In this document: positions 9,755-19,125 of the stretch, piece after piece
Numbering within the stretch: position 1 is the first letter of the stretch
Layout of the letters: each line of letters opens with the position of its first letter
Virus record (IMG/VR): IMGVR_UViG_3300026493_000002
Direction: 5' to 3' (one strand)
From: a virus
Taxonomy: Duplodnaviria; Caudoviricetes
DNA: 64,000 bases
Notes under the pieces: generated by a model
The model's database searches: none
What the model saw: the letters and a program-made list of their open reading frames with translations, nothing else
What the model was told of the DNA's origin: nothing
Position numbers and translations under genes: made by a program

Positions 9755-10737
9755 TGCGCCTCGACCTTTCTCTCGAAGGCACCGCTGCCCAGAAGCGCCG
9801 CAAGAAAAAGAAAGCTGCGCCCGCCAAGGACTTGACCTTCACCGAGTCGATGGATGCTCTTGCCACCTTCGACGACGTGCTGCTGACCGGCCGATTGAAC
9901 GACACGCAGATCACGGCCGAAGTACAGCAGCCGTGGGCACGCGCCGAACTGGTCGAAGGCGAAGTGCACCAAATGCTCCACATCGTGCCGCTGCGCGATA
10001 TGCCGGCGGGCACTCTCCTGTACGTCAACGGTCAGGTGCCCAACTTCAACGCGGCGACGCTGGTCAACGAGTTGCAGGAGCAGATGCGTCAGTTCCAGAA
10101 CGCGGTCAACATCGTGCTGCTCATGCGCAACCAAGATATGCTGCTGGCGAATACGCTGCAGGCGGCTATCAATCGTTGGGCCACGGCCAACGCCGAGACG
10201 CTCCAGATCTTGGGCATCAACGCTGATGACCTGTACCCGAAGTTCCCGACCGTCCAGGAAACGAAGCTCCGGGAAGGTGATACGGAAGTCTTCGATGAAG
10301 ACCGGCAGGCCAAGATCGAACACGCCAAGGATGCCAGCGGCGTGATGCCCCGCATCCACGGCACCGAGTTCCTGATGACGCCGGAAGAAACGGTCGCATA
10401 CGACGTGCCCGTGATCTTCGCCGCAGACGTTATCGAGTTCGGCGACCTCATGAACATCAAGAAAGCCTTCAAGGGCCAGACGGTGTTCCTGTTCGAGTCG
10501 GGCATGTTCTTCGACGCCGATCCCGAGGGCCCCGATTTCTGGGACGTGATCTTCGACTCCCGTTCCGAGTGCAACATCGTTCCGATCTTCCTGCCGTCGG
10601 ACGTCGAAGCGTGGGCCCAGCTGTTCGGCGGCAAGATGATGACGCGCTCCGATATCGCCACTCCCGGCTTTGAGAAGGGCGCCATCGTGTTGCGTCGCGG
10701 CCGGGTGACGAAAGACACCTTCGAGTTCACTACCTGA
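9754..10737 (+). CDS. hypothetical protein with Lys-rich N-terminus
   Basis: TGATG coupling to upstream gene. Confidence 0.8.
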   Translation: MRLDLSLEGTAAQKRRKKKKAAPAKDLTFTESMDALATFDDVLLTGRLNDTQITAEVQQPWARAELVEGEVHQMLHIVPLRDMPAGTLLYVNGQVPNFNAATLVNELQEQMRQFQNAVNIVLLMRNQDMLLANTLQAAINRWATANAETLQILGINADDLYPKFPTVQETKLREGDTEVFDEDRQAKIEHAKDASGVMPRIHGTEFLMTPEETVAYDVPVIFAADVIEFGDLMNIKKAFKGQTVFLFESGMFFDADPEGPDFWDVIFDSRSECNIVPIFLPSDVEAWAQLFGGKMMTRSDIATPGFEKGAIVLRRGRVTKDTFEFTT

Positions 10738-10747
10738 GTACAGAGCA

Positions 10748-10942
10748 ATGTCTGACAAAACCCACGCACCGATGCCGACCTGCGACTGTCTTCCGTGCAG
10801 TCATGTGGAACGGGATCGCCTGCGCAATCTGCTGAACAATCGGCCGGCGGTGAATGCCGGTCTGGAAAGTGCGTACGTCAAATGGAGCGGACAGGTGTAC
10901 GAGTCCGACATGTTGGCACACGCTGGTATCCGTCCCAACTAG
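10748..10942 (+). CDS. small hypothetical protein
   Basis: fills gap between genes. Confidence 0.6.
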   Translation: MSDKTHAPMPTCDCLPCSHVERDRLRNLLNNRPAVNAGLESAYVKWSGQVYESDMLAHAGIRPN

Positions 10943-10949
10943 GTGAGTT

Positions 10950-11378
10950 ATGCGCCTCCACTTCAAAGCTGACAATCAGAACAAGCTGTTGCCGTTCAGT
11001 GTCGATCACTGGCAGCGCGTGTTCCTGCCATACGACAAGCTGATGGTGACTGCCGATTCGGTTGTCGAGGCACCCTCCGTGTTTGAACACTGCGAGCGCG
11101 TGGCTCAACGTACTGGTCTGGGCTGGGAACTGCCTTCGATTGAGACGTTGCAACTGATCGTGGACTTCACCAAGTATCAACCTGCGGCCGATAGCCGTTA
11201 CTTCCGTTTTGAGCGTGGCTTCTTTTGGTCGTCCACGCCAACTCCGTGGAGTGACGGTCACCGCTTCGGCATTGAGTTCTTCACGGGCGAAGTGCGCTAT
11301 CGGCAGATCACCGAGCAGGGAATGGCGCTTTCTGTGCTGAGGGATTTCCGCCCTCCGGCAGGCAAGGCCCGGCGTTAA
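10950..11378 (+). CDS. DUF1566 (Lcl C-terminal) domain protein
   Basis: WELPSIETLQLIV...FWSSTP...FFTGEV signature. Confidence 0.75.
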   Translation: MRLHFKADNQNKLLPFSVDHWQRVFLPYDKLMVTADSVVEAPSVFEHCERVAQRTGLGWELPSIETLQLIVDFTKYQPAADSRYFRFERGFFWSSTPTPWSDGHRFGIEFFTGEVRYRQITEQGMALSVLRDFRPPAGKARR

Positions 11379-11380
11379 AT

Positions 11381-11387
11381 CTGTAAA
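11381..11387 (+). promoter_or_regulatory. CTGTAAA motif heading the DNA-modification operon
   Basis: intergenic, after stop codon. Confidence 0.5.
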
Positions 11388-11442
11388 TACCAAACGTTAT
11401 CAACGAGGCCTTAGCGCCAACCACTACAAGGCAAACGACAAG

Positions 11443-12261
11443 ATGGGCAAGCACCTGAAACTTACGGACCTGCGTGAGGCCGAATACAACCCGCGAATCA
11501 TCAGCGCCAAGCGACTGGAGAATCTCCAGAAGTCCATGCTGCGCTTCGGTGACCTCTCGGGCGTCGTGTTCAACGAGTCCACCAAGAAGCTCGTTTCCGG
11601 CCACCAGCGTTTGAAGACGATCCGCGAAGCCGGCCTCGAAACCGAAATCGTGACGTCCAAGCGCAAGGACAAGCACGGCACCGTGGCAGAAGGCTACATC
11701 ATCGCCAAGACCCCGGACGGCGAGATTCGTCTGCCGCTGCGCGTCGTCAACTGGGCCGACAAGAAGGCTGAAATCGCGGCGAACATCGCAGCCAATGCGC
11801 ACGGCGGTGACTTCGACCGTACCAAGCTCGGCGCGCTGTTGGTCAAGCTCGAAAAGGGCAAGGCGTTCGACATTGACACGCTGGGCCTCGACCCGCTGTC
11901 TCTGCGTGGCCTGATGCAGGTCATGCCGACGCTGGGCACCAAGGGTGAAGGCGGCGGTGAAGAAGACGGCGAGAGCTTCCCGGAGTACGGCGAAGACAGC
12001 TTCGACCTGCATCACACCTGCCCCAAGTGCAAGTTCCGTTTCAGCGCATCGGCTTCTTCCAAGAAGGCGCCGGGCCCGAAGGAGAACAAGCAGGTCGAGG
12101 CAGCCAAGAAGACCAAGGCTGCGAAGAAGGATGCCGAGAAGAAGGCGTCCAAGAAGTCCAAGAGCGACGACGATGCACCGGTGAAGAAAAAGAAGTCCAA
12201 GAACAAGGACGAGCCGGCGAAGAAGTCGAAGAAGGACAAGTTCAAGAAGCTGCGTAAGTAA
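11443..12261 (+). CDS. ParB/Srx-fold protein with CxxC ribbon and Lys-rich tail
   Basis: EYNPRIIS, VSGHQRLK, NIAANAHGGDFD; HTCPKCKFRF; ~70-aa Lys-rich tail. Confidence 0.85.
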   Translation: MGKHLKLTDLREAEYNPRIISAKRLENLQKSMLRFGDLSGVVFNESTKKLVSGHQRLKTIREAGLETEIVTSKRKDKHGTVAEGYIIAKTPDGEIRLPLRVVNWADKKAEIAANIAANAHGGDFDRTKLGALLVKLEKGKAFDIDTLGLDPLSLRGLMQVMPTLGTKGEGGGEEDGESFPEYGEDSFDLHHTCPKCKFRFSASASSKKAPGPKENKQVEAAKKTKAAKKDAEKKASKKSKSDDDAPVKKKKSKNKDEPAKKSKKDKFKKLRK

Positions 12262-12274
12262 CCGGAGAACAGAC

Positions 12275-13156
12275 ATGGCGCGTAAGGCCCAGAACAAGAT
12301 CGCAGTGCCGGCATTCAAACGCCGTAAGTCGGCAAGCGATGCCAAACCGCGCATTCGTCTGCGCTTGACCAAGAGCCTGGAGAAGCACAAGGACGAGCCG
12401 TTGGCTATCCTGTTGTCCTCGGGCCTCGACTCCAATGCCGTGCTGTTCTCGGCATTGGAGCTCGGCATGAAGCCGCATATCTACAGCTTCACGCTCGATG
12501 ACCGCGAGGCTCGTGACTTCCGTATCGCTCGACAGACGGCCGAGACCTTCGGCCTAAAGTTCACACCGATCTACCTTCCGACCGACCTCAAGAAGGTCAA
12601 GAAGGGCCTGATCAGTACCGTGAAGGAGCTCGACGCCAGCGGCAAGTCGGCCATCGAATGTCTGTACGCTTTCAAGTACGCGGTCGACTCCATCAAGGAG
12701 AAGAACATCGTCAGCGGTCTGGCGGCCGACATTTACTTCGTGCTGTCCAAGAAGGGCTGTATGCACTACAAGGACTGCGCAGACGACTACCGCATTCCGC
12801 GACACGCTACGGTCAAGGGTCCCACGTCGCAGACTTCCAAGCTGCGTGCCTACTGCAGGAAAAAGGGCAAGCGCTGGTTGAGTCCGTGGCTGACCGATCA
12901 GATGATGGACGAGTTCCGTGGTACCAGCTGGGATGACGTGAACAAGCCCAAGCAGAAGAACCCGATCCACGTGCAGTACCCGGAGTTCCTGGCTCACGCC
13001 AAGACCTACCAACACACCAACCTGCAGCTGGGCGACAGCGGTATCTCGGCACTGTTCACGCAGCTGCTGGACGATCCTCACTGGAATCCCGAGCGCCGGT
13101 TCAAGAGCATGACGGGCGTGTACAACCGCCTCGTTCGTGGAGAGATTACCAAATGA
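12275..13156 (+). CDS. asparagine-synthetase-like ATP-dependent amide ligase (synthetase domain only)
   Basis: PP-loop LLSSGLDS, VSGLAADIYF, SPWL; no N-terminal Ntn glutaminase domain. Confidence 0.8.
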   Translation: MARKAQNKIAVPAFKRRKSASDAKPRIRLRLTKSLEKHKDEPLAILLSSGLDSNAVLFSALELGMKPHIYSFTLDDREARDFRIARQTAETFGLKFTPIYLPTDLKKVKKGLISTVKELDASGKSAIECLYAFKYAVDSIKEKNIVSGLAADIYFVLSKKGCMHYKDCADDYRIPRHATVKGPTSQTSKLRAYCRKKGKRWLSPWLTDQMMDEFRGTSWDDVNKPKQKNPIHVQYPEFLAHAKTYQHTNLQLGDSGISALFTQLLDDPHWNPERRFKSMTGVYNRLVRGEITK

Positions 13157-13758
13157 TCTTTGAACTGAGCCGCAAAGGCTACAGGATCGAGAAGCTGGAG
13201 AAGAGCGCACGCGGTGTCGTCGCTCTCCTCCCTATCTTCGACTACCTGCGAACGTTGCCCGGCATGAGCCTGTGCACGGATCTGGATGCCCAGATCTCAT
13301 ACGTCGATCAGGAGGACCTCGACCTCTACGTGGCCCACAATTTGGACTCGATCTTCGACGTTCCCGCAGAGGGACAAGGCGTGATCGCCATAGCGGGCGT
13401 CAAGAACCACCGGTCGTACAGCTACGAGCCGCGCCCGTACGTGTTCAACGAACCGGGCAGCTTCGGCATGAAGCACGTTGCTCGCGCCGCCGAACTGTGT
13501 TGCCTTGCGGTGATGCCCAACTTCCGGGGCAAGGGGCTTTGCCGCTCACTCACTCTACATCGCCTCGACAAGATGCCCGACAACCGTACGGCAGTCATTG
13601 AGTTGCGGCCGAGTGCTGACAGCCTCAACCAGCTTTCGCGTGAGCCGGAAGCGCACGCATCTACGACCAGTGTGCAGCGCATCGCGCAGCGCCTGGGATT
13701 CAAGTACGAGGGCCGCGCTCTCGCAGACAACAGCATGGTGCTGGTAGCACCGTTCTAA
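13153..13758 (+). CDS. GNAT-family acetyltransferase
   Basis: LAVMPNFRGKGLC acetyl-CoA motif A; ATGA overlap with ligase gene. Confidence 0.75.
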   Translation: MIFELSRKGYRIEKLEKSARGVVALLPIFDYLRTLPGMSLCTDLDAQISYVDQEDLDLYVAHNLDSIFDVPAEGQGVIAIAGVKNHRSYSYEPRPYVFNEPGSFGMKHVARAAELCCLAVMPNFRGKGLCRSLTLHRLDKMPDNRTAVIELRPSADSLNQLSREPEAHASTTSVQRIAQRLGFKYEGRALADNSMVLVAPF

Positions 13759-13769
13759 GGACTTCAACC

Positions 13770-14666
13770 GTGCAAATGACCAATGTAGACCTCATTAGCG
13801 CCCCGTTTGGTGAGGGCGCTGGTGTTCTGGGATCCGAGAACGGCCCGAGTATGCTGGTTAAGCTCGGACTCTGCTCGGCGATCGGGCACGAAGGACTGTG
13901 CATCAATCAGTTCCACGAAATCAAGGCGAAGGTGCATCCGTATGTGCCTCAGCCCAGCCTCAAGTGCGGCGGTCACACGATTGCCTACAACGATGCGATC
14001 TACGAACGCTGCATCCTGAGTCTGCGCGACGACAGGTTCCCGCTGATGCTCGCCGGCGATCATTCGCTCTCCATCGGTTCGATCCTCGCCGCCAGCGACT
14101 ACGCGAAGGAGAATCGGAAGAAGTTCATCTGCCTGTACATCGACGCCCACACGGACTTCAACACTCCGGAGACGACGATGACGGGCAACACCCACGGCAT
14201 GACGCTTGCCGCTGCCGGTGGCCTGTTCCTCGATCTTGCGGTTGAGGCCTCGGAGAACCACCTGGACCTGTCCAGCATCATCTATTACGGTGCGCGTGAC
14301 ATTGACCACGAGGAGCAGAAGCTGCTGGATGAACATCCGGAGATTACCGTCATCGACATGAAGGACCAGTTCCACCTTCTGACGCTGATGGATCTGCTGG
14401 ACGAACGTCTCGACGAGGACACCCACATCCACGTCAGCTTCGATGTGGACAGTCTGGATCCGAATCACTTCCTCGCTACTGGCCTGAACGTGCCGAACGG
14501 TCTCCTTCCACAGGAAGTCGAGGCCCTCTTCCAGGATCTGCGTGCCAGCGGCGCGGTCAAATCCCTTGACGTGGTTGAGTACAACCCGTCCAAGGACAAC
14601 GCCACTTTTGAAGGCGGCCTGATGGTCAACACCATCGTGTCCCGTCTCTTCCACAACGCCCGGTGA
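13770..14666 (+). CDS. arginase (ureohydrolase family)
   Basis: AGDHSLSIGS, IDAHTDFNT, GNTHGM, SFDVDSLDP, DVVEYNP: all Mn-binding residues present. Confidence 0.9.
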   Translation: MQMTNVDLISAPFGEGAGVLGSENGPSMLVKLGLCSAIGHEGLCINQFHEIKAKVHPYVPQPSLKCGGHTIAYNDAIYERCILSLRDDRFPLMLAGDHSLSIGSILAASDYAKENRKKFICLYIDAHTDFNTPETTMTGNTHGMTLAAAGGLFLDLAVEASENHLDLSSIIYYGARDIDHEEQKLLDEHPEITVIDMKDQFHLLTLMDLLDERLDEDTHIHVSFDVDSLDPNHFLATGLNVPNGLLPQEVEALFQDLRASGAVKSLDVVEYNPSKDNATFEGGLMVNTIVSRLFHNAR

Positions 14667-15679
14667 CAGACGTGTCCAAGAAAATCTTCAAGATGCCTAC
14701 GATGAAGGCAATCAACGCCAAGGAGAAGCACTTCAAGGGTATCAGCACGTTCAGTGGCTGCGGTGGCAGTTCGACTGGCGTGAAGATGGCCGGCGTCAAG
14801 GTGCTGGTGGCAACCGAGTTCATCAAGCCTGCGATTGAGACCTACAAGGCGAACCACAAGGGCACCAAAGTGCTGGGTGATGACATTCGCAAGGTCGACT
14901 GGGAAGCTGTGCGCAAGGAGTTCAAGCTCAAGCGCGGTCAGCTGGACTTCTCCGAGGGCAGTCCGCCGTGCAAGTCGTTCTCCACTGCTGGCACCAAGAG
15001 TGAAGGCTGGGGCGAGGAAAAGAAGTACTCCGAGAACGTCAGTCAGCGTACCGACGACCTGTTCTACGAGGAAATGCGCAAGCTGTCCGAGTTCATGCCC
15101 AAGACCTTTGTGTGCGAGAACGTCAAGGGCATGGTCGAAGGTGACGCCAAGGGTTACTTCCTTGAAATCCTCCGTGACCTCAAGGCGGTCGGCTACAACG
15201 TCCGTGCGCAGGTGTTGAATGCTGCGCGTCTCGGTGTTCCGCAGGCCCGTGAGCGCATCATCTTCGTTGGCGTCCGTGACGATCTGGCGAAGAAGGGCCA
15301 CATGCCCGTATTCCCCAAGCCGCAGAAGCACGAAATCTACGTCACTGACGTGCTGCCGAAGATCGCCTACCTCAAGTCGAAGAAGAACGGCATCATGCAG
15401 TACGTGCCGGCTACCATCCCGAGTCCGACCATTGTTGCATCCGATGGCCTGAACTCGGAGACTGCGGGCTTCTCGACCGGCGGCTTCATCGAGACCATTG
15501 AGGGCGAACGTCGCAAGTACACCATCGAGGAGTTGAAGAAAATCTTCACCTTCCCCGAGGACTTCGTGTTCACCGGCAACTATCGCCAGCAGTTCGAGCG
15601 CATCGGCCGTTCGGTTCCGCCGTTGATGATGTACCACGTCGTCCGCGAAATCCGTAGGCAGATCCTCGAAAAGCTGTAA
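14663..15679 (+). CDS. C5-cytosine DNA methyltransferase, predicted carboxymethyltransferase (motif X Asn replaced by Arg316)
   Basis: FSGCGG (I), GSPPCKSFS (IV), ENVKG (VI), QARERIIFVG (VIII), ERIGRSVPP (X); GTGA overlap with arginase. Confidence 0.9.
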   Translation: MTDVSKKIFKMPTMKAINAKEKHFKGISTFSGCGGSSTGVKMAGVKVLVATEFIKPAIETYKANHKGTKVLGDDIRKVDWEAVRKEFKLKRGQLDFSEGSPPCKSFSTAGTKSEGWGEEKKYSENVSQRTDDLFYEEMRKLSEFMPKTFVCENVKGMVEGDAKGYFLEILRDLKAVGYNVRAQVLNAARLGVPQARERIIFVGVRDDLAKKGHMPVFPKPQKHEIYVTDVLPKIAYLKSKKNGIMQYVPATIPSPTIVASDGLNSETAGFSTGGFIETIEGERRKYTIEELKKIFTFPEDFVFTGNYRQQFERIGRSVPPLMMYHVVREIRRQILEKL

Positions 15680-15680
15680 A
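15674..15680 (+). promoter_or_regulatory. CTGTAAA motif
   Basis: overlaps methyltransferase stop codon. Confidence 0.4.
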
Positions 15681-15708
15681 CCATCCTCACATCCAATCGG
15701 AGATTCCC

Positions 15709-16353
15709 GTGAGCGAAGAACAGAACGAAACGGCTGTCGTTGTGCCGCCGGAACCCAAGACCATCACGGTGCTGATTCTCGGCACCGATCGCAACGTCGG
15801 CCAGGACAAGCTCGGTGAGCAGCTGGCCGCACAGTTGATCGCTGGTGGCATCAAGGTGCAGCACACGCCGACCGATGACTACGCGCGCATCCGCGCTGGC
15901 GAACTGCCCAGCCTGATCGAGAGCCACCTGAGCAAGAAGCACGCCATCAACGTGCTGTCCTACAACGGTGCGCTGTCGCATCCCGAGACCGGCCCCGTGG
16001 CCCTCGCGCTGCTGTACACGGTGAAGCCCAGCCTCGTCATCATGTGCCACGCGGGCTTTCGCGGTACGCAGGACGGTGTCAGCGTGCAGGGCGTTGGCCT
16101 TGCATCTGAAATCGCCAACACACTGCTGTTCGCTCGCCGCTTCAATCCCGATGCGAAGCTGGCGGGCATCAATCTGCATGGCGAAGGCCAGACCGAGGCC
16201 GACCTCAAGACCACGATTGACGAGACCTATCCCCTGGGTCAGTCGTTCGGCGTCGAAGTGTTCTCCTTCGACAGTGGCTCCGACGATTCGGAACTGCCCG
16301 AGGAGTTCGTTGAATCCATTGACGTGCTGGCACGAAAGGCGAAGTCACGATGA
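15709..16353 (+). CDS. DUF1611-like (DgcN-related) P-loop-fold protein, divergent
   Basis: ILGTDRNVGQDK, LLYTVKPSLVIMCH, KLAGINL parallel DUF1611 segments GTDCxVGK, LLHGSQPDALILCH, VVAIALN. Confidence 0.5.
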   Translation: MSEEQNETAVVVPPEPKTITVLILGTDRNVGQDKLGEQLAAQLIAGGIKVQHTPTDDYARIRAGELPSLIESHLSKKHAINVLSYNGALSHPETGPVALALLYTVKPSLVIMCHAGFRGTQDGVSVQGVGLASEIANTLLFARRFNPDAKLAGINLHGEGQTEADLKTTIDETYPLGQSFGVEVFSFDSGSDDSELPEEFVESIDVLARKAKSR

Positions 16354-17198
16354 ACGCGATTACTGATACGGAGTTCCAGGACCAGGGCGTCGTCTCGCCT
16401 CCGTGCGTCAAGAAGGTCGATGACCACCAGCCGGGCGCGAAGTGGGAGTTCAATGCCGACGTCGCCGTCAAGTTCGATGACATGCTGGGCCGCTCGATTC
16501 CGGGCTACCTGCAGATGCGCGAACTGGCGTACGAACTGGGCAAGAAGTTCATCCCCGATCAGAACGTCAACGTGATCGACCTGGGCGCTTCGCGTGGTGA
16601 GTCGGCTTCGGCCTTCATCGACACGCCTGCGTTCTCGGGCGCCAACTACTTCCTCAGCGAAGTCAGCGAGCCGATGCTGGATCAGATGCGTGAGCGCTGG
16701 AACGGCGTGTCGAACGTCCATCCGGTCAGCTACGACCTGCGGCGCAAGTACACCGATATCGCCTACGCGATCCACGATCCCGTGCGCAACATGGTGAACA
16801 ACGGCAAGATACCAAGCACGCCGTACACGCTGCATCCGACGACGCTGGTGCAGGCTATCCTGACCCTGATCTTCGTGCCGATCAACTTCCGGCAGGGCAT
16901 CCTCAAGGGTGTCCACGAGGGCTTGGCTCCGGGCGGCGCGTTCATCATGGTCGAGAAGGTCCTGGGCGACAGCGCCGAAATGCAGGACCTGTTGGTCGAT
17001 GCCTACCACGATCACAAGCATCGTCACGGCTACAGCTGGGAAGACATTGAGCGCAAGCGTGCGTCTCTGGAGGGCGTGCAGGTTCCCGTGCGCCACGAGG
17101 AGAACATCGCCATGCTGCGCTCGGCCGGCTTCCGCAACGTCGAAACCTTCTGGCGCCATCTGAACTTCGTCGGGTACATCTGCATCAAGGACCAGTGA
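16350..17198 (+). CDS. cmoA: carboxy-S-adenosyl-L-methionine synthase CmoA-like
   Basis: WEFNADVAVKFDDMLGRSIPGY, DLGASRG, LTLIFVP, PGGAFIMVEK, KRASLEGVQVP, LRSAGF...WRHLNF; ATGA overlap. Confidence 0.88.
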   Translation: MNAITDTEFQDQGVVSPPCVKKVDDHQPGAKWEFNADVAVKFDDMLGRSIPGYLQMRELAYELGKKFIPDQNVNVIDLGASRGESASAFIDTPAFSGANYFLSEVSEPMLDQMRERWNGVSNVHPVSYDLRRKYTDIAYAIHDPVRNMVNNGKIPSTPYTLHPTTLVQAILTLIFVPINFRQGILKGVHEGLAPGGAFIMVEKVLGDSAEMQDLLVDAYHDHKHRHGYSWEDIERKRASLEGVQVPVRHEENIAMLRSAGFRNVETFWRHLNFVGYICIKDQ

Positions 17199-17230
17199 CC
17201 TCTTAGAGGCTCACCGCGACAGTCTACAAC

Positions 17231-17250
17231 GGGCCTTCTCAGGAAGGCCC
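17231..17250 (+). terminator. 8-bp GC-rich hairpin ending modification operon
   Basis: GGGCCTTC-tcag-GAAGGCCC; no U-tract. Confidence 0.4.
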
Positions 17251-17268
17251 CATGAAGAGGGCTTCACT

Positions 17269-17742
17269 ATGTTCGGTTGGCGTAACATCCTGACCGCACC
17301 GAAGAACAAACGTATCCTCGTGTGCGGCAACAACTGGTCCGACTCGCAGGGTCCATTGAAGGAGCCGGTGATTGCTCAGTGGAATGAAAGTCGTGAACGC
17401 TGGGAGACTGGCACCGGCATTCTGGGTACTTACGGCATTCGCCCGACCCACTGGCAGCCGCTCCCTGAGGTCTACTCCACGTCGTCGATGGATCCGAAGC
17501 ACATGATCTACGTTGACACGGGTCGCGTCCTGAGCATTCACGCCGCGGTGAAGGTCGTGCTGGCGTACGAGGGTGTTCCGTTCGACGTGGTGACTGGCCC
17601 TCACGGTGCAGGCCTGCTGGTCGAACCCCAGCATCTGGACAAGATGAATCGCGTTGCCAATGATTGGGGCGGGCTGCGTGACTCCATTCCACGCGCGCTG
17701 TTCAACGCTACCGTGGACTACCAACAGAGGAACAAGCCGTGA
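17269..17742 (+). CDS. DUF551-like domain protein
   Basis: RILV...W...PTHWQPLPE signature. Confidence 0.6.
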   Translation: MFGWRNILTAPKNKRILVCGNNWSDSQGPLKEPVIAQWNESRERWETGTGILGTYGIRPTHWQPLPEVYSTSSMDPKHMIYVDTGRVLSIHAAVKVVLAYEGVPFDVVTGPHGAGLLVEPQHLDKMNRVANDWGGLRDSIPRALFNATVDYQQRNKP

Positions 17743-17876
17743 GCGACACCCTGAAATGCGACTACTGCGGCTACGTGTACCAGCTCGGTCTCAGCCTGTA
17801 CAAGGCCGGCGACAAGTGCCCGAAGTGCAACGGTCGCGGCATTCTCTGTTCCAAAGGCTCGCGAGGTAACCCGTGA
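17739..17876 (+). CDS. small Zn-ribbon protein (45 aa, not in ORF track)
   Basis: VSDTLKCDYCGY...KCPKCNG; GTGA overlaps at both ends. Confidence 0.7.
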   Translation: MSDTLKCDYCGYVYQLGLSLYKAGDKCPKCNGRGILCSKGSRGNP

Positions 17877-18652
17877 GCAGCCACGTTCTTCGAGTAGTGG
17901 ACAACCCCACACTTCCGCTCGTTCCGGAATTCTCGGTCGCCGTCGGTCATTCCATCGGTGACTTCGGAGCGCAGGCCAGCAGTCTCGGAGGCATCGTCTA
18001 TGCAACGTTGCTTAAGAAGAGCTCCATTCCGAATGAGGAGTCGGCGCGTCGTCTGCACGCTTCGATATCCAAGCTGTACACGGAAGATCTGGATCGACCG
18101 ATAGCGGGCATGACCGCTCAGCTTGATGACTACAGCATTCCTCTCTTGCGCATGTCTAGCGCCGAGATTGACCAGTTGGTATATCTCGGATTCAATCCGA
18201 TCCGCTGCGCAATCCAGTTCGGCGTTGTTCCGTGGGCGCAGCATACGTCTCATGGGTACAGCATCCAGCTGCTGCGCCTCTTGGTGACGGCTATTCATGC
18301 CATTTCAGTACGGGCGGGGCGTGCCTGCGAAGCCTGTTCGCTGGAAGGACCTGCACGCAATCACGCCCTGTACCACCACTCTGCTGAGGTCTTCATGGAG
18401 CTCCAGCAGTTCAGGCTTTCGCATATGTTCCAACTGGTAGCAGGCAGACACGGAGCGCACGGTATCGCCATTATGCTTGAGCGCGACGCCCCGCCGTTCG
18501 GAAAGAACTTCCTTGAGGAGGCTCTGTGCATAAGCACGGACGTCATGGAGGTCGGTAACGTTTTCGGAACCCTCCACCAGTTGCAGATCCTGCATGAACT
18601 GTGGCCGAGCATGTTCACTGGTGGCCCGCAAATCTGTAAAGGGAATCGGTAG
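17873..18652 (+). CDS. hypothetical protein
   Basis: GTGA-coupled ORF, codon use less biased than neighbours. Confidence 0.65.
   Translation: MSSHVLRVVDNPTLPLVPEFSVAVGHSIGDFGAQASSLGGIVYATLLKKSSIPNEESARRLHASISKLYTEDLDRPIAGMTAQLDDYSIPLLRMSSAEIDQLVYLGFNPIRCAIQFGVVPWAQHTSHGYSIQLLRLLVTAIHAISVRAGRACEACSLEGPARNHALYHHSAEVFMELQQFRLSHMFQLVAGRHGAHGIAIMLERDAPPFGKNFLEEALCISTDVMEVGNVFGTLHQLQILHELWPSMFTGGPQICKGNR
18634..18640 (+). promoter_or_regulatory. CTGTAAA motif
   Basis: last codons of upstream gene, 33 nt before next start. Confidence 0.45.
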
Positions 18653-18672: not shown

Positions 18673-19125
18673 ATGCGCGAATTGAAGTTGCTACGCAAGC
18701 GCGTAAAGGCAATGTGGAAAATGGAAGAGGAGTTGTCGCCTCCGGAGCGCAAGCTCCATCAGTGGCAATTCCTCTCGACCCAGACGGGCATCCCGTATCT
18801 CGTAGGCAAGGGTGACGCAAACACCTTCTTCTACAAGATCGGCGAGAAGGGCGAAATGCAGTACGTCATGCCCGACAAGATGTTTGCCATCTTGGACAAG
18901 TGGTGCGGCGAGAAGTACGTCATGTACGCCATCGCTCGCAACTCCAACGTGAAGAAGGCCAAGCGCCAATCGAAGGTCCTCGCCGACCTGTTGAAGCGCA
19001 CCAACTCCAAGTATGCGGACTACCACATCGTGGGTATCACCGCCGACAGCCGAGTGGACAAGCTGTACTCGATGAAGACAGGCCTGACGGCCAACCAGTG
19101 GGTGCCGTTGAAGGTCAAGCCGTAG
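18673..19125 (+). CDS. hypothetical basic protein
   Basis: GAGG RBS. Confidence 0.8.
   Translation: MRELKLLRKRVKAMWKMEEELSPPERKLHQWQFLSTQTGIPYLVGKGDANTFFYKIGEKGEMQYVMPDKMFAILDKWCGEKYVMYAIARNSNVKKAKRQSKVLADLLKRTNSKYADYHIVGITADSRVDKLYSMKTGLTANQWVPLKVKP

Follow-up and report, generated by a model that had tools for sequence, protein, structure and literature searches.

What does the seven-gene operon at 11443-17198 of this phage do to the phage's DNA, and how far does it depart from modification systems already described? The window examined here is a 64,000-nucleotide stretch of IMG/VR record IMGVR_UViG_3300026493_000002, which belongs to a ~233-kb soil jumbo phage, a distant relative of Pseudomonas phage PaBG. 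Our preferred reading, to which we assign a probability of roughly 0.55, is that the operon directs postreplicative hypermodification of DNA cytosine by a CmoA/CmoX/CmoY core, with an arginase feeding formation of an ornithine amide, a GNAT-fold protein carrying out N-acylation, and antidefense as the role of the product.

Layout of the operon and its setting

An open reading frame (ORF) check of the window found seven co-directional plus-strand ORFs, contiguous as the first-pass annotation had drawn them, with three start/stop overlaps of 4 nt each (13153, 14663, and 16350). Automated gene calling recovered the same seven genes on L005, a metagenome contig with 98% identity. The operon sits in a replication module, where genes for DNA polymerase, clamp, and helicase adjoin it. 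The features are as follows.

11381-11387, + strand: promoter-like CTGTAAA preceding the operon, 56 nt 5′ of the ParB start
11443-12261, + strand: ORF, ParBc protein
12275-13156, + strand: ORF, CmoY-type ligase
13153-13758, + strand: ORF, GNAT-fold protein
13770-14666, + strand: ORF, probable arginase
14663-15679, + strand: ORF, CmoX-type methyltransferase
15674-15680, + strand: second CTGTAAA, overlapping the CmoX stop, 28 nt upstream of the DUF1611-like start
15709-16353, + strand: ORF, DUF1611/DgcN-like protein
16350-17198, + strand: ORF, CmoA-type protein
17231-17250, + strand: hairpin GGGCCTTC-TCAG-GAAGGCCC, 3′ of the CmoA stop, with an 8-bp GC-rich stem and a 4-nt loop
18673-19125, + strand: gp307-like small protein (phrog_23597), outside the interval covered by the first-pass annotation

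Both flanking signals described from the letters alone, a CTGTAAA in front of the first gene and a hairpin behind the last, were recovered; the hairpin has no T tract and was missed by an intrinsic-terminator scan. CTGTAAA occurs 11 times in the window, on the plus strand only, compared with 2.8 copies expected on both strands, and none of 100 shuffles reached 11. Nearly all copies are intergenic and lie 30 to 70 nt upstream of a start codon, a distribution that suggests a promoter-like element. The copy overlapping the CmoX stop is a possible internal promoter, and another, at 18634, precedes the gp307-like gene.

That gene bears on the extent of the operon. While its seven ORFs are real, the operon as first described is probably incomplete, since the gp307-like gene co-travels with clusters of this kind. 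The encoded protein is 57% identical to PaBG gp307, which is encoded between cmoA and cmoY, and homologues lie in or beside cmoA/cmoY clusters in vB_DsoM_AD1 (AD1), Yersinia fHe-Yen9-02, and lineages L050 and L048. It probably belongs to the system as well.

A predicted carboxymethylcytosine core

In Synechococcus phage S-B43, CmoA makes carboxy-SAM (Cx-SAM), CmoX uses it to form 5-carboxymethylcytosine (5cxmC), and CmoY converts 5cxmC to its glycine amide (Yang et al. 2025, Nat Commun, PMC12783734). This is the cyanophage trio of CmoA, carboxymethyltransferase, and amide ligase that the first-pass annotation had pointed to, and other ligase clusters were already predicted in the same paper to use other amines. 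The window shares with S-B43 the same four clustered families (CmoA, CmoX, CmoY, and ParBc), a CmoX with SPPC and the Cx-SAM-binding Arg, and a synthetase-only CmoY. What it adds is an arginase, a member of a new GNAT-fold family, a gp307-like protein, and a truncated DgcN-like protein; PMC12783734 and its supplements mention none of the four.

The 14663-15679 product has the C5-methyltransferase fold (DNA_methylase, PF00145, 2.5e-53), and its best PDB match is SpCmoX (8YF3, 1.4e-58). Its GSPPC motif places SPPC at residues 100 to 103, with Cys103 aligned with the SpCmoX SPPC. Arg316 (ERIGRSVPP, aligned with ERVGRMVPP of 8YF3) occupies the position of SpCmoX R350, where M.HhaI has Asn. Arg at that position binds the Cx-SAM carboxylate (motif X GN to GR); the R350N variant is dead, and the wild type refuses SAM (PMC12783734). 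With both published hallmarks of CmoX in place, the protein is predicted to be a CmoX-type DNA cytosine C5-carboxymethyltransferase. It is 80% identical to PaBG gp309. Its target recognition region does not align with that of SpCmoX, so its sequence specificity may differ.

The 16350-17198 product scored below cutoff with both CmoA models (TIGR00740, 1.6e-33 and 116.4 bits against 193.3; PRK15451, 85.7 bits against 285) and had no Pfam match. Despite these scores, CmoA is its best and only specific family: the top PDB matches are the CmoA structures 4GEK (1e-22), 4IWN, and 1IM8 (1e-21 to 1e-23), and the protein retains the KR found in the SQKRSMLENV segment of E. coli CmoA. The protein matches phrog_4752 (1.2e-63), is 62% identical to PaBG gp308, and is predicted to be a CmoA-type carboxy-SAM synthase.

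The 12275-13156 product (293 amino acids [aa]) matches only the synthetase part of Asn_synthase (PF00733, 6.9e-9); the TIGR01536 match is limited to positions 225 to 365, and there is no glutaminase domain. A PP-loop, SSGLDS, lies at residues 48 to 53, and the gene adjoins the CmoX/CmoA cluster, as expected of a synthetase-only CmoY. The protein matches phrog_26038 (5.6e-58) and is 87 to 98% identical to its relatives (dN/dS of 0.03 to 0.09). These features point to a CmoY-type ATP-dependent amide ligase built on an AsnB synthetase domain. The ParBc protein matches phrog_620 (2.4e-32) and, weakly, Pfam ParB_N (0.0066), has an HHTCPKC cluster of His and Cys residues as well as a tail rich in Lys, and is 66% identical to PaBG gp310. 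ParBc is a frequent neighbor of CmoX (PMC12783734), and here it would be an accessory DNA-binding partner.

The closest cultured relative by DNA is PaBG (Baikalvirus; gp310-gp305, 73.6% over 40% of the region), which clusters the same four core genes. However, its CmoY is only 38% identical, it lacks arginase, an A1-type GNAT, and DUF1611, and its gp305 has no detectable relation to the GNAT-like protein. Alexandravirus-type Erwinia/Dickeya jumbo phages (e.g., AD1 gp016-gp021) carry cmoA, DUF1611, and cmoY in that order with a gp307-like gene a short way beyond, but without arginase or an A1-type GNAT and with ParB/CmoX ~17 kb away.

Accessory genes around the core

The 13770-14666 product has the length of a bacterial arginase (298 aa) and matches PF00491 (4.5e-44). 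With TIGR01229 (NCBIfam rocF_arginase) it scored 180.7 bits, below the equivalog cutoff of 227.6 and far above its scores as agmatinase (57 bits) or formimidoylglutamase (52 bits). Its best solved relatives are arginases, and its nearest relatives are bacterial arginases (~35% identity). The motifs GDHS (96), DAHTDFNT (125), GNTHG (139), DIDHEE (177), SFDVD (223), and EYNP (270) do not vary across the phage clade. H98, D125, H127, D129, D225, D227, H142, and E270, which comprise the binuclear Mn ligands and catalytic His/Glu, all fall within canonical motifs and are the same in each of six clade members. Also invariant are the α-amino- and α-carboxylate-binding residues N131, D177, D179, and E182, which we take to correspond to human ARG1 N130, D181, D183, and E186; in the human enzyme, D181, D183, and E186 hold the substrate α-amino group and N130 the α-carboxylate. 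Comparison with L009 gave a dN/dS of 0.20, indicating purifying selection. The protein is an arginase-family ureohydrolase and probably a true L-arginase.

The 13153-13758 product scored 18.8 bits with Acetyltransf_1 (PF00583), below the Pfam threshold of 20.7, and its putative CoA-binding loop (consensus R/Q-x-x-G-x-G/A) reads RGKGLC, whereas relatives differ there (RGQHFA and QGHKVA). Its AF2 model (pLDDT of 87.6) has the GNAT fold, aligning with many GNAT structures at Z scores of 13 to 14.7 over 135 to 179 residues. The arginine/ornithine succinyltransferase AstA (1yle) gave the top Foldseek match and the longest alignment (Z score of 14.0, 179 residues), but structural matches to the model are tied across many GNAT subfamilies, and the likeness to AstA can serve only as a lead. 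The family is very small, with 6 matches among 1.84 billion representatives, and in every relative found the gene is directly 3′ of a CmoY-like gene. Distant relatives (25 to 32% identity) again directly follow CmoY, in CmoX-CmoY-GNAT-gp307like-CmoA clusters. The dN/dS compared with L009 is 0.23. We conclude that the GNAT-fold protein belongs to a new family and is a fixed downstream partner of the present CmoY subtype.

Five further metagenomic lineages (L005, L008/L009/L010, L006, L002-L004, and L007) also have CmoY, GNAT, and arginase in this order next to CmoX and/or CmoA, and across them arginase identity ranges from 98% down to 38%. Throughout the arginase-clade lineages, the arginase gene is embedded in the modification cluster, flanked by GNAT on one side and by CmoX or CmoA on the other, and it overlaps its neighbors or is separated from them by very few nucleotides; the searches made did not find the clade outside modification clusters. 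Conservation of arginase and GNAT alongside CmoA and the methyltransferase, which the first-pass annotation had made a condition of its proposal, is borne out by these lineages; for DUF1611 it holds only in part.

The two closest lineages have the DUF1611-like gene (35% identity; dN/dS of 0.75, near-neutral divergence), and the L002 cluster lacks it. In the window, the 214-aa product matches DUF1611_C (PF07755, 1.1e-12; 48.2 bits against a cutoff of 25), and Foldseek placed the N-acetyltransferase DgcN first (7XRJ, 6.7e-8), followed by 2OBN and 2G0T. The profile aligns only to 7xrj residues 129 to 299 (5.4e-10). The two-domain architecture (about 330 to 350 aa) with GxxxxGK is not found: the N domain is missing, and Gln replaces the P-loop Lys in both phage lineages (GTDRNVGQ versus GTDCSVGK). 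The DgcN equivalog score is 28 bits versus 480. The protein is a truncated, fast-evolving C-terminal P-loop-type domain. A separate link comes from Alexandravirus: 34 Erwinia/Dickeya jumbo-phage records have a full-length DUF1611 gene flanked by cmoA and cmoY, an order that makes DUF1611 a recurrent accessory of CmoA/CmoY clusters. The Alexandravirus protein is 351 aa long, whereas that of the window matches only its C-terminal part (27.6%).

Proposed pathway and the source of the amine

By analogy with the characterized homologous system, CmoA would convert SAM and prephenate to carboxy-SAM, CmoX would transfer the carboxymethyl group to C5 of phage DNA cytosine to give 5cxmC, and CmoY would adenylate the 5cxmC carboxylate and join an amine to it. 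Gene context suggests an amine other than glycine, which is probably not the substrate here. Arginase would turn free L-arginine into L-ornithine and urea. Should this CmoX target GpC, as SpCmoX does, the genome would hold ~41,000 target cytosines, each requiring an amine; with arginase supplying the very large amount of amine for CmoY, the modified base would then be 5cxmC carrying ornithine, or an ornithine-derived amine, in amide linkage. The GNAT-fold protein may N-acylate whichever amino group stays free on the added residue, either once it is attached or just before, and the truncated DgcN-like and gp307-like proteins could be optional tailoring or helper factors. An ornithine amide, possibly N-acylated, is what we infer, and the inference extends to the choice of amine, to the acyl group, and to the sequence in which the steps occur.

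Among hypermodified pyrimidines that start from a 5-hydroxymethyl handle are α-putrescinylthymine (phiW-14), α-glutamylthymine (SP10), and aminoethyl-uracils, and the putrescinyl group of phiW-14 derives from ornithine. The proposed pathway shares their logic, a reactive C5 handle followed by a small amine or amino acid, but would use a carboxyl rather than a hydroxymethyl/pyrophosphate handle, C rather than T or U, and other enzymes. The literature searched reports no arginase in hypermodified-pyrimidine pathways and no link of arginase, GNAT, or DUF1611 to the 5cxmC pathway.

Perhaps one chance in several lies with an amine that does not come from arginine: CmoY would use glycine, as its S-B43 counterpart does, or another common amino acid, GNAT would tailor the product, and arginase would be an auxiliary metabolic gene acting on host arginine, polyamines, or urea. 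Lineages L048, L050, and L051 lack arginase and keep a 52 to 74% identical CmoY with a GNAT-like partner, so the present ligase subtype can do without arginase, which could have some other purpose. Some unrelated large viral contigs also carry arginases but lack all six of the remaining operon genes, which shows that viruses can put arginase to other uses, and no arginase is present in PaBG or in 80 further records of cultured phages that have CmoA. Nevertheless, the confinement, in the searches made, of this arginase clade to modification clusters, in an order kept down to 38% identity, argues against an unrelated metabolic role.

Somewhat more doubtful is a route in which CmoY ligates L-arginine, which cells contain in abundance, through its α-amine to 5cxmC and the arginase-family enzyme then strips urea on the DNA, leaving an ornithyl amide that GNAT may acylate. 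The CmoY-GNAT-arginase order and its tight coupling would suit such an assembly line, and arginase-less relatives with a similar CmoY would simply stop at the arginine amide. Adduct sizes are similar by either route, as the arginine amide and the acetyl-ornithine amide are near isobaric (calculated [M+H]+ of 442.204 versus 442.193). However, the residues that bind a free α-amino group are invariant in the phage clade, which is unexpected if that amine is locked in an amide; arginases need free α-substituents and have a deep, narrow cleft; and the 298-aa protein carries no added DNA-binding part. Ordinary 5-methylcytosine formation, with the CmoA homologue acting on tRNA or merely depleting SAM, is very improbable: generic Pfam and NCBIfam names (C5 DNA methylase and dcm) and the PHROGs label of the CmoA homologue (tRNA methyltransferase) would fit it, but the motif X Asn is changed to Arg316 exactly as in SpCmoX, no CmoB partner is found in the operon, and a carboxylate-activating ligase gene adjoins.

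We retain the ornithine-amide reading. The core is the known 5-carboxymethylcytosine system, and what is new is the accessory set, in which the conserved arginase and GNAT-like genes point to an undescribed, probably ornithine-derived DNA base. SpCmoX-modified DNA resists HhaI, and the modification proposed here would likely shield the phage genome against restriction and against further defenses that target DNA.

Operon layout and the predicted carboxymethylation core

The first-pass annotation had proposed a seven-gene operon in this soil jumbo phage, and every open reading frame was recovered in place on the plus strand.

11443-12261, +, ParBc protein
12275-13156, +, CmoY, amide ligase
13153-13758, +, GNAT-like protein
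13770-14666, +, arginase
14663-15679, +, CmoX, C5-methyltransferase homologue
15709-16353, +, DUF1611/DgcN-like protein
16350-17198, +, CmoA

The three start/stop overlaps noted earlier are also present, each 4 nt long (13153-13156, 14663-14666, and 16350-16353), and gene calling carried out independently on L005, a metagenome contig with 98% identity, gave the same seven genes. Genes upstream of the operon encode DNA polymerase, clamp, and helicase, and a recorded 233-kb contig encodes an identical DUF1611-like protein; together these place the operon in a jumbo phage, in its replication region. Among cultured phages, Pseudomonas phage PaBG is closest, with 73.6% identity across 40% of the region. 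Directly 5′ of the operon, an Lcl C-terminal domain (PF07603, 3.6e-9) occurs in a small protein encoded at 10950-11378, which is kept in L005. No tRNA genes were found in the window.

The CTGTAAA motif claimed at the operon head is real (11381) and nonrandom by count: 11 copies occur in the window, all on the plus strand, versus 2.8 expected (~4 times chance), and no shuffle reached 11.

2662, 6407, 8505, 11381, 15674, 18634, 20443, 21335, 28013, 52807, 63228, +, CTGTAAA copies

Almost all lie in short intergenic gaps, mostly 30 to 70 nt 5′ of start codons and frequently within the longer form AAATCTGTAAA; the copy at 15674 overlaps the CmoX stop codon, just 5′ of the DUF1611-like gene. The motif is probably a phage-specific promoter element. 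Scans for sigma-70 promoters and intrinsic terminators gave no signal above background, and the hairpin described at the operon end was located at 17231-17250, with a perfect 8-bp stem and no T-run. Positions 10500-18500 have 50 to 100× word depth in soil libraries labelled metatranscriptomic (sequencing runs X2 to X7 and X11). Such libraries carry the whole stretch as 50- to 74-kb contigs, which is not proof of transcription; the phage sequence in them looks like DNA carried through the RNA preparation and may not represent transcripts. DNase resistance of hypermodified DNA is a speculative possibility here.

In Synechococcus phage S-B43, CmoA produces carboxy-SAM (Cx-SAM), the C5-methyltransferase homologue CmoX places a carboxymethyl group onto cytosine in a GC context, and CmoY, an AsnB-like ligase, then couples glycine to the added group (Yang et al., Nat Commun 2025, PMC12783734). 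This is the published form of the cyanophage trio mentioned in the first-pass annotation. Candidate CmoX proteins are defined there by an SPPC motif and Arg350, and ParBc proteins are frequent CmoX neighbours (PMC12783734). The best solved relative of the window methyltransferase is the S-B43 enzyme, SpCmoX (PDB 8YF3, 1.4e-58, versus 5.5e-25 for M.HaeIII), and the protein has SPPC at 100-103 and an arginine, Arg316, aligned with SpCmoX R350. The last operon gene finds its best matches in CmoA models and structures but scores under the NCBI equivalog cut-off; the second encodes an AsnB homologue consisting of the synthetase part only, with the PP-loop present, and the first encodes a ParBc protein. 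The same four core genes are likewise clustered in PaBG, and 82 records of cultured phages in the collection have CmoA. The cluster is very probably a hypermodification system based on 5-carboxymethylcytosine (5cxmC). The core pathway proposed earlier holds up as a match to a known type of chemistry, in which amide ligation follows the Cx-SAM-dependent carboxymethylation of cytosine, and is not new.

Several further features of the core proteins were observed. Beyond its ParBc domain, the first protein ends in 75 residues (12037-12261) with an HHTCPKC cluster and a long Lys-rich, histone-H1-like tail, a composition that suggests non-specific DNA binding. In the related metagenome contig L006, the CmoX gene (L006:2362-4263) has a ~1.1-kb in-frame insertion exactly at the catalytic Cys of SPPC; it matches the Intein_splicing, Hint_2, and LAGLIDADG_3 families and therefore represents an intein in the carboxymethyltransferase active site. 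CmoY (12275-13156) and its homologues on contigs L002, L006, L007, and L009 share 87 to 98% amino acid identity, with dN/dS of 0.03 to 0.09, while the arginase and GNAT-like proteins of the same contigs are only 38 to 76% identical. This conservation reflects either unusually strong constraint or recent exchange of the ligase gene among phages.

Linkage of the arginase and GNAT-like genes to modification clusters

Past its own lineage, the arginase has relatives at 76, 52, 50, and 38% identity, followed by bacterial arginases at ~35% (e.g., Luteimonas). All close members of the clade share one arrangement within modification clusters.

Gene order around the arginase (Arg) in metagenome contigs
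L008, L009, L010: CmoY-GNAT-Arg-CmoX-DUF1611-CmoA
L006: CmoY-GNAT-Arg-CmoX
L002 (152-kb contig): ParB-146aa-CmoX-CmoY-GNAT-Arg-CmoA
L007: CmoY-GNAT-Arg-CmoX

Co-conservation of the accessory genes with CmoA and the methyltransferase in relatives had been set beforehand as a refutation test, and the arginase and GNAT-like genes withstand it, recurring in this order beside CmoX, CmoA, or both. Relative to L009, dN/dS was 0.03 for CmoY, 0.09 for CmoX, 0.20 for arginase, 0.23 for GNAT, 0.27 for CmoA, and 0.75 for DUF1611; relative to the near-identical L005, all seven genes gave ≤0.2. These low values indicate that the arginase and GNAT-like genes are maintained by selection. Two further genes of the L002 contig (L002:4956-5318, 11794-12996) code for a SET-domain protein, upstream of the cluster, and for a Tad2-like protein (PF11195), immediately 3′ of cmoA.

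Neither this arginase nor the GNAT-like protein was found in the cultured phages of the collection. For the arginase, tblastn against cultured phages returned only two unannotated Staphylococcus phage records (30% identity), and a single-sequence scan of IMG/VR returned no relatives. Megablast with 25 kb gave no match. A clade profile did retrieve 32 arginase loci from IMG/VR, mostly giant-virus bins at ≤37% identity; none carries any of the other six genes, and they were set aside as generic arginases.

The GNAT-like family comprises 6 proteins among 1.84 billion representatives searched with a profile of five members. Three new, distant members (25 to 32% identity) are each encoded directly 3′ of a CmoY-like gene, and the metagenome contigs L048 and L050 have CmoX-CmoY-GNAT-gp307like-CmoA clusters without arginase. 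Since the GNAT-like gene follows CmoY even where arginase is missing, the pair of a CmoY subtype and its GNAT forms the conserved centre of what is new; the arginase is an addition in high-GC jumbo-phage lineages. GNAT profile scans found nothing in IMG/VR, and in JGI metagenomes no more than two short contigs, both from the L008/L009 lineage. The predicted structure (pLDDT 87.6) has a GNAT fold (Z 13 to 14.7). Its top Foldseek hit, with the longest alignment, is AstA (arginine/ornithine succinyltransferase), tied statistically with many GNATs, so that the modelled likeness to AstA is a lead and not an assignment. Complex prediction of CmoY with the GNAT-like protein scored 0.01, which is neutral as evidence. 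Positional equivalents 3′ of CmoY (PaBG gp305, Dickeya phage AD1 gp019, and Yersinia phage genes 254/255) showed no detectable relation to it and no Pfam match.

DUF1611/DgcN-like and gp307-like proteins

The DUF1611-like protein covers only the C-terminal domain of DgcN-type N-acetyltransferases (top hit, 7XRJ) and has lost the P-loop Lys. Its identity drops to 35% between lineages that share 98% in CmoY; the gene is intact, yet evolves nearly freely between lineages. No relatives were found in a single-sequence IMG/VR scan or by tblastn against cultured phages. In 34 records of Erwinia/Dickeya jumbo phages (Alexandravirus-type; in AD1, L012 13015-14070), cmoA and cmoY flank a full-length DUF1611 gene, which makes the family a recurrent accessory of these systems. 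These cultured phages could serve for probing the role of DUF1611 in the pathway.

A further small protein, named after PaBG gp307, is encoded near the operon.

18673-19125, gp307-like protein (phrog_23597), conserved VGKGxANT motif

It occurs in or beside cmoA/cmoY clusters in six lineages (PaBG, AD1, Yersinia fHe-Yen9-02, L050, L048, and the window phage) and probably belongs to the system. The CmoX paper does not discuss it (PMC12783734). Its resemblance to small GNATs (Atlas score 0.90) is a lead; relation to the GNAT-like protein was rejected by profile comparison (probability 0.3%).

Proposed pathway and alternatives

By homology to the characterised system, CmoA would supply Cx-SAM, CmoX would form 5cxmC in DNA, and CmoY would adenylate the carboxyl group and form an amide. 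In the further, inferred steps, the arginase would convert free arginine to ornithine, feeding CmoY, and the GNAT-like protein would acylate the remaining amino group either ahead of ligation or following it, with the DgcN-like and gp307-like proteins as optional helpers. We give a probability of about 0.4 to the reading that the product is an undescribed base, 5cxmC amide-linked to ornithine and possibly N-acylated by the new GNAT family, with the arginase converting host arginine. Supply of the attached amine by the arginase has slightly less than an even chance, and N-acylation of that amine by the GNAT-like protein is a more tentative proposal.

The metal ligands and catalytic His/Glu of the arginase are all present and invariant across the phage clade, as are the residues that we take, from their role in true arginases, to contact the free alpha-amino acid moiety. 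Its arginase model score is far above those of agmatinase and formimidoylglutamase models. The kept residues and this model preference favour free L-arginine as the predicted substrate. One alternative keeps the arginase in the pathway and has an arginyl amide trimmed on the DNA; the predicted preference for the free amino acid sits less easily with it. A second holds that the arginase is metabolically incidental, as the clusters without arginase might suggest; its recurrent placement inside modification clusters argues against this. Were GpC the target, ~41,000 cytosines would be open to modification in a 233-kb genome, so that a burst would need millions of amine molecules, well beyond a trace intermediate pool, which gives a rationale for a supply enzyme. 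Plain 5mC as the product is the weakest alternative, given that Arg316 takes the place of the motif X Asn as in SpCmoX.

The first description of the 5cxmC handle dates only from late 2025; it gave the glycine amide as the one downstream product and expected other amines (PMC12783734). The text and supplements of that paper contain no arginase, ornithine, acetyltransferase, DUF1611, PaBG, or jumbo phages, and literature searches found no paper in which arginase or the other accessory genes are tied to the hypermodification of phage DNA. The extended branch, which would be arginase-fed and probably acylated, is not known from the papers searched. If the ornithine reading is true, no urea-cycle-type enzyme would have been seen in DNA hypermodification before, and the CmoX/CmoY carboxyl handle would support multistep tailoring.

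As a candidate for a second and more elaborate branch of carboxymethyl-handle chemistry, the operon is concrete, conserved, and open to testing. It offers a ligase subtype under apparently extreme purifying selection, an arginase as a candidate dedicated substrate-supply enzyme, and one or two putative tailoring proteins that resemble acyltransferases and whose families have hardly any other members. Confirmation would add a new natural DNA base, provide new enzymes with which DNA could be functionalised at chosen sites (through a carboxyl handle and an amine bearing another reactive group), and give a clear case of a phage rewiring host amino acid metabolism for genome modification.
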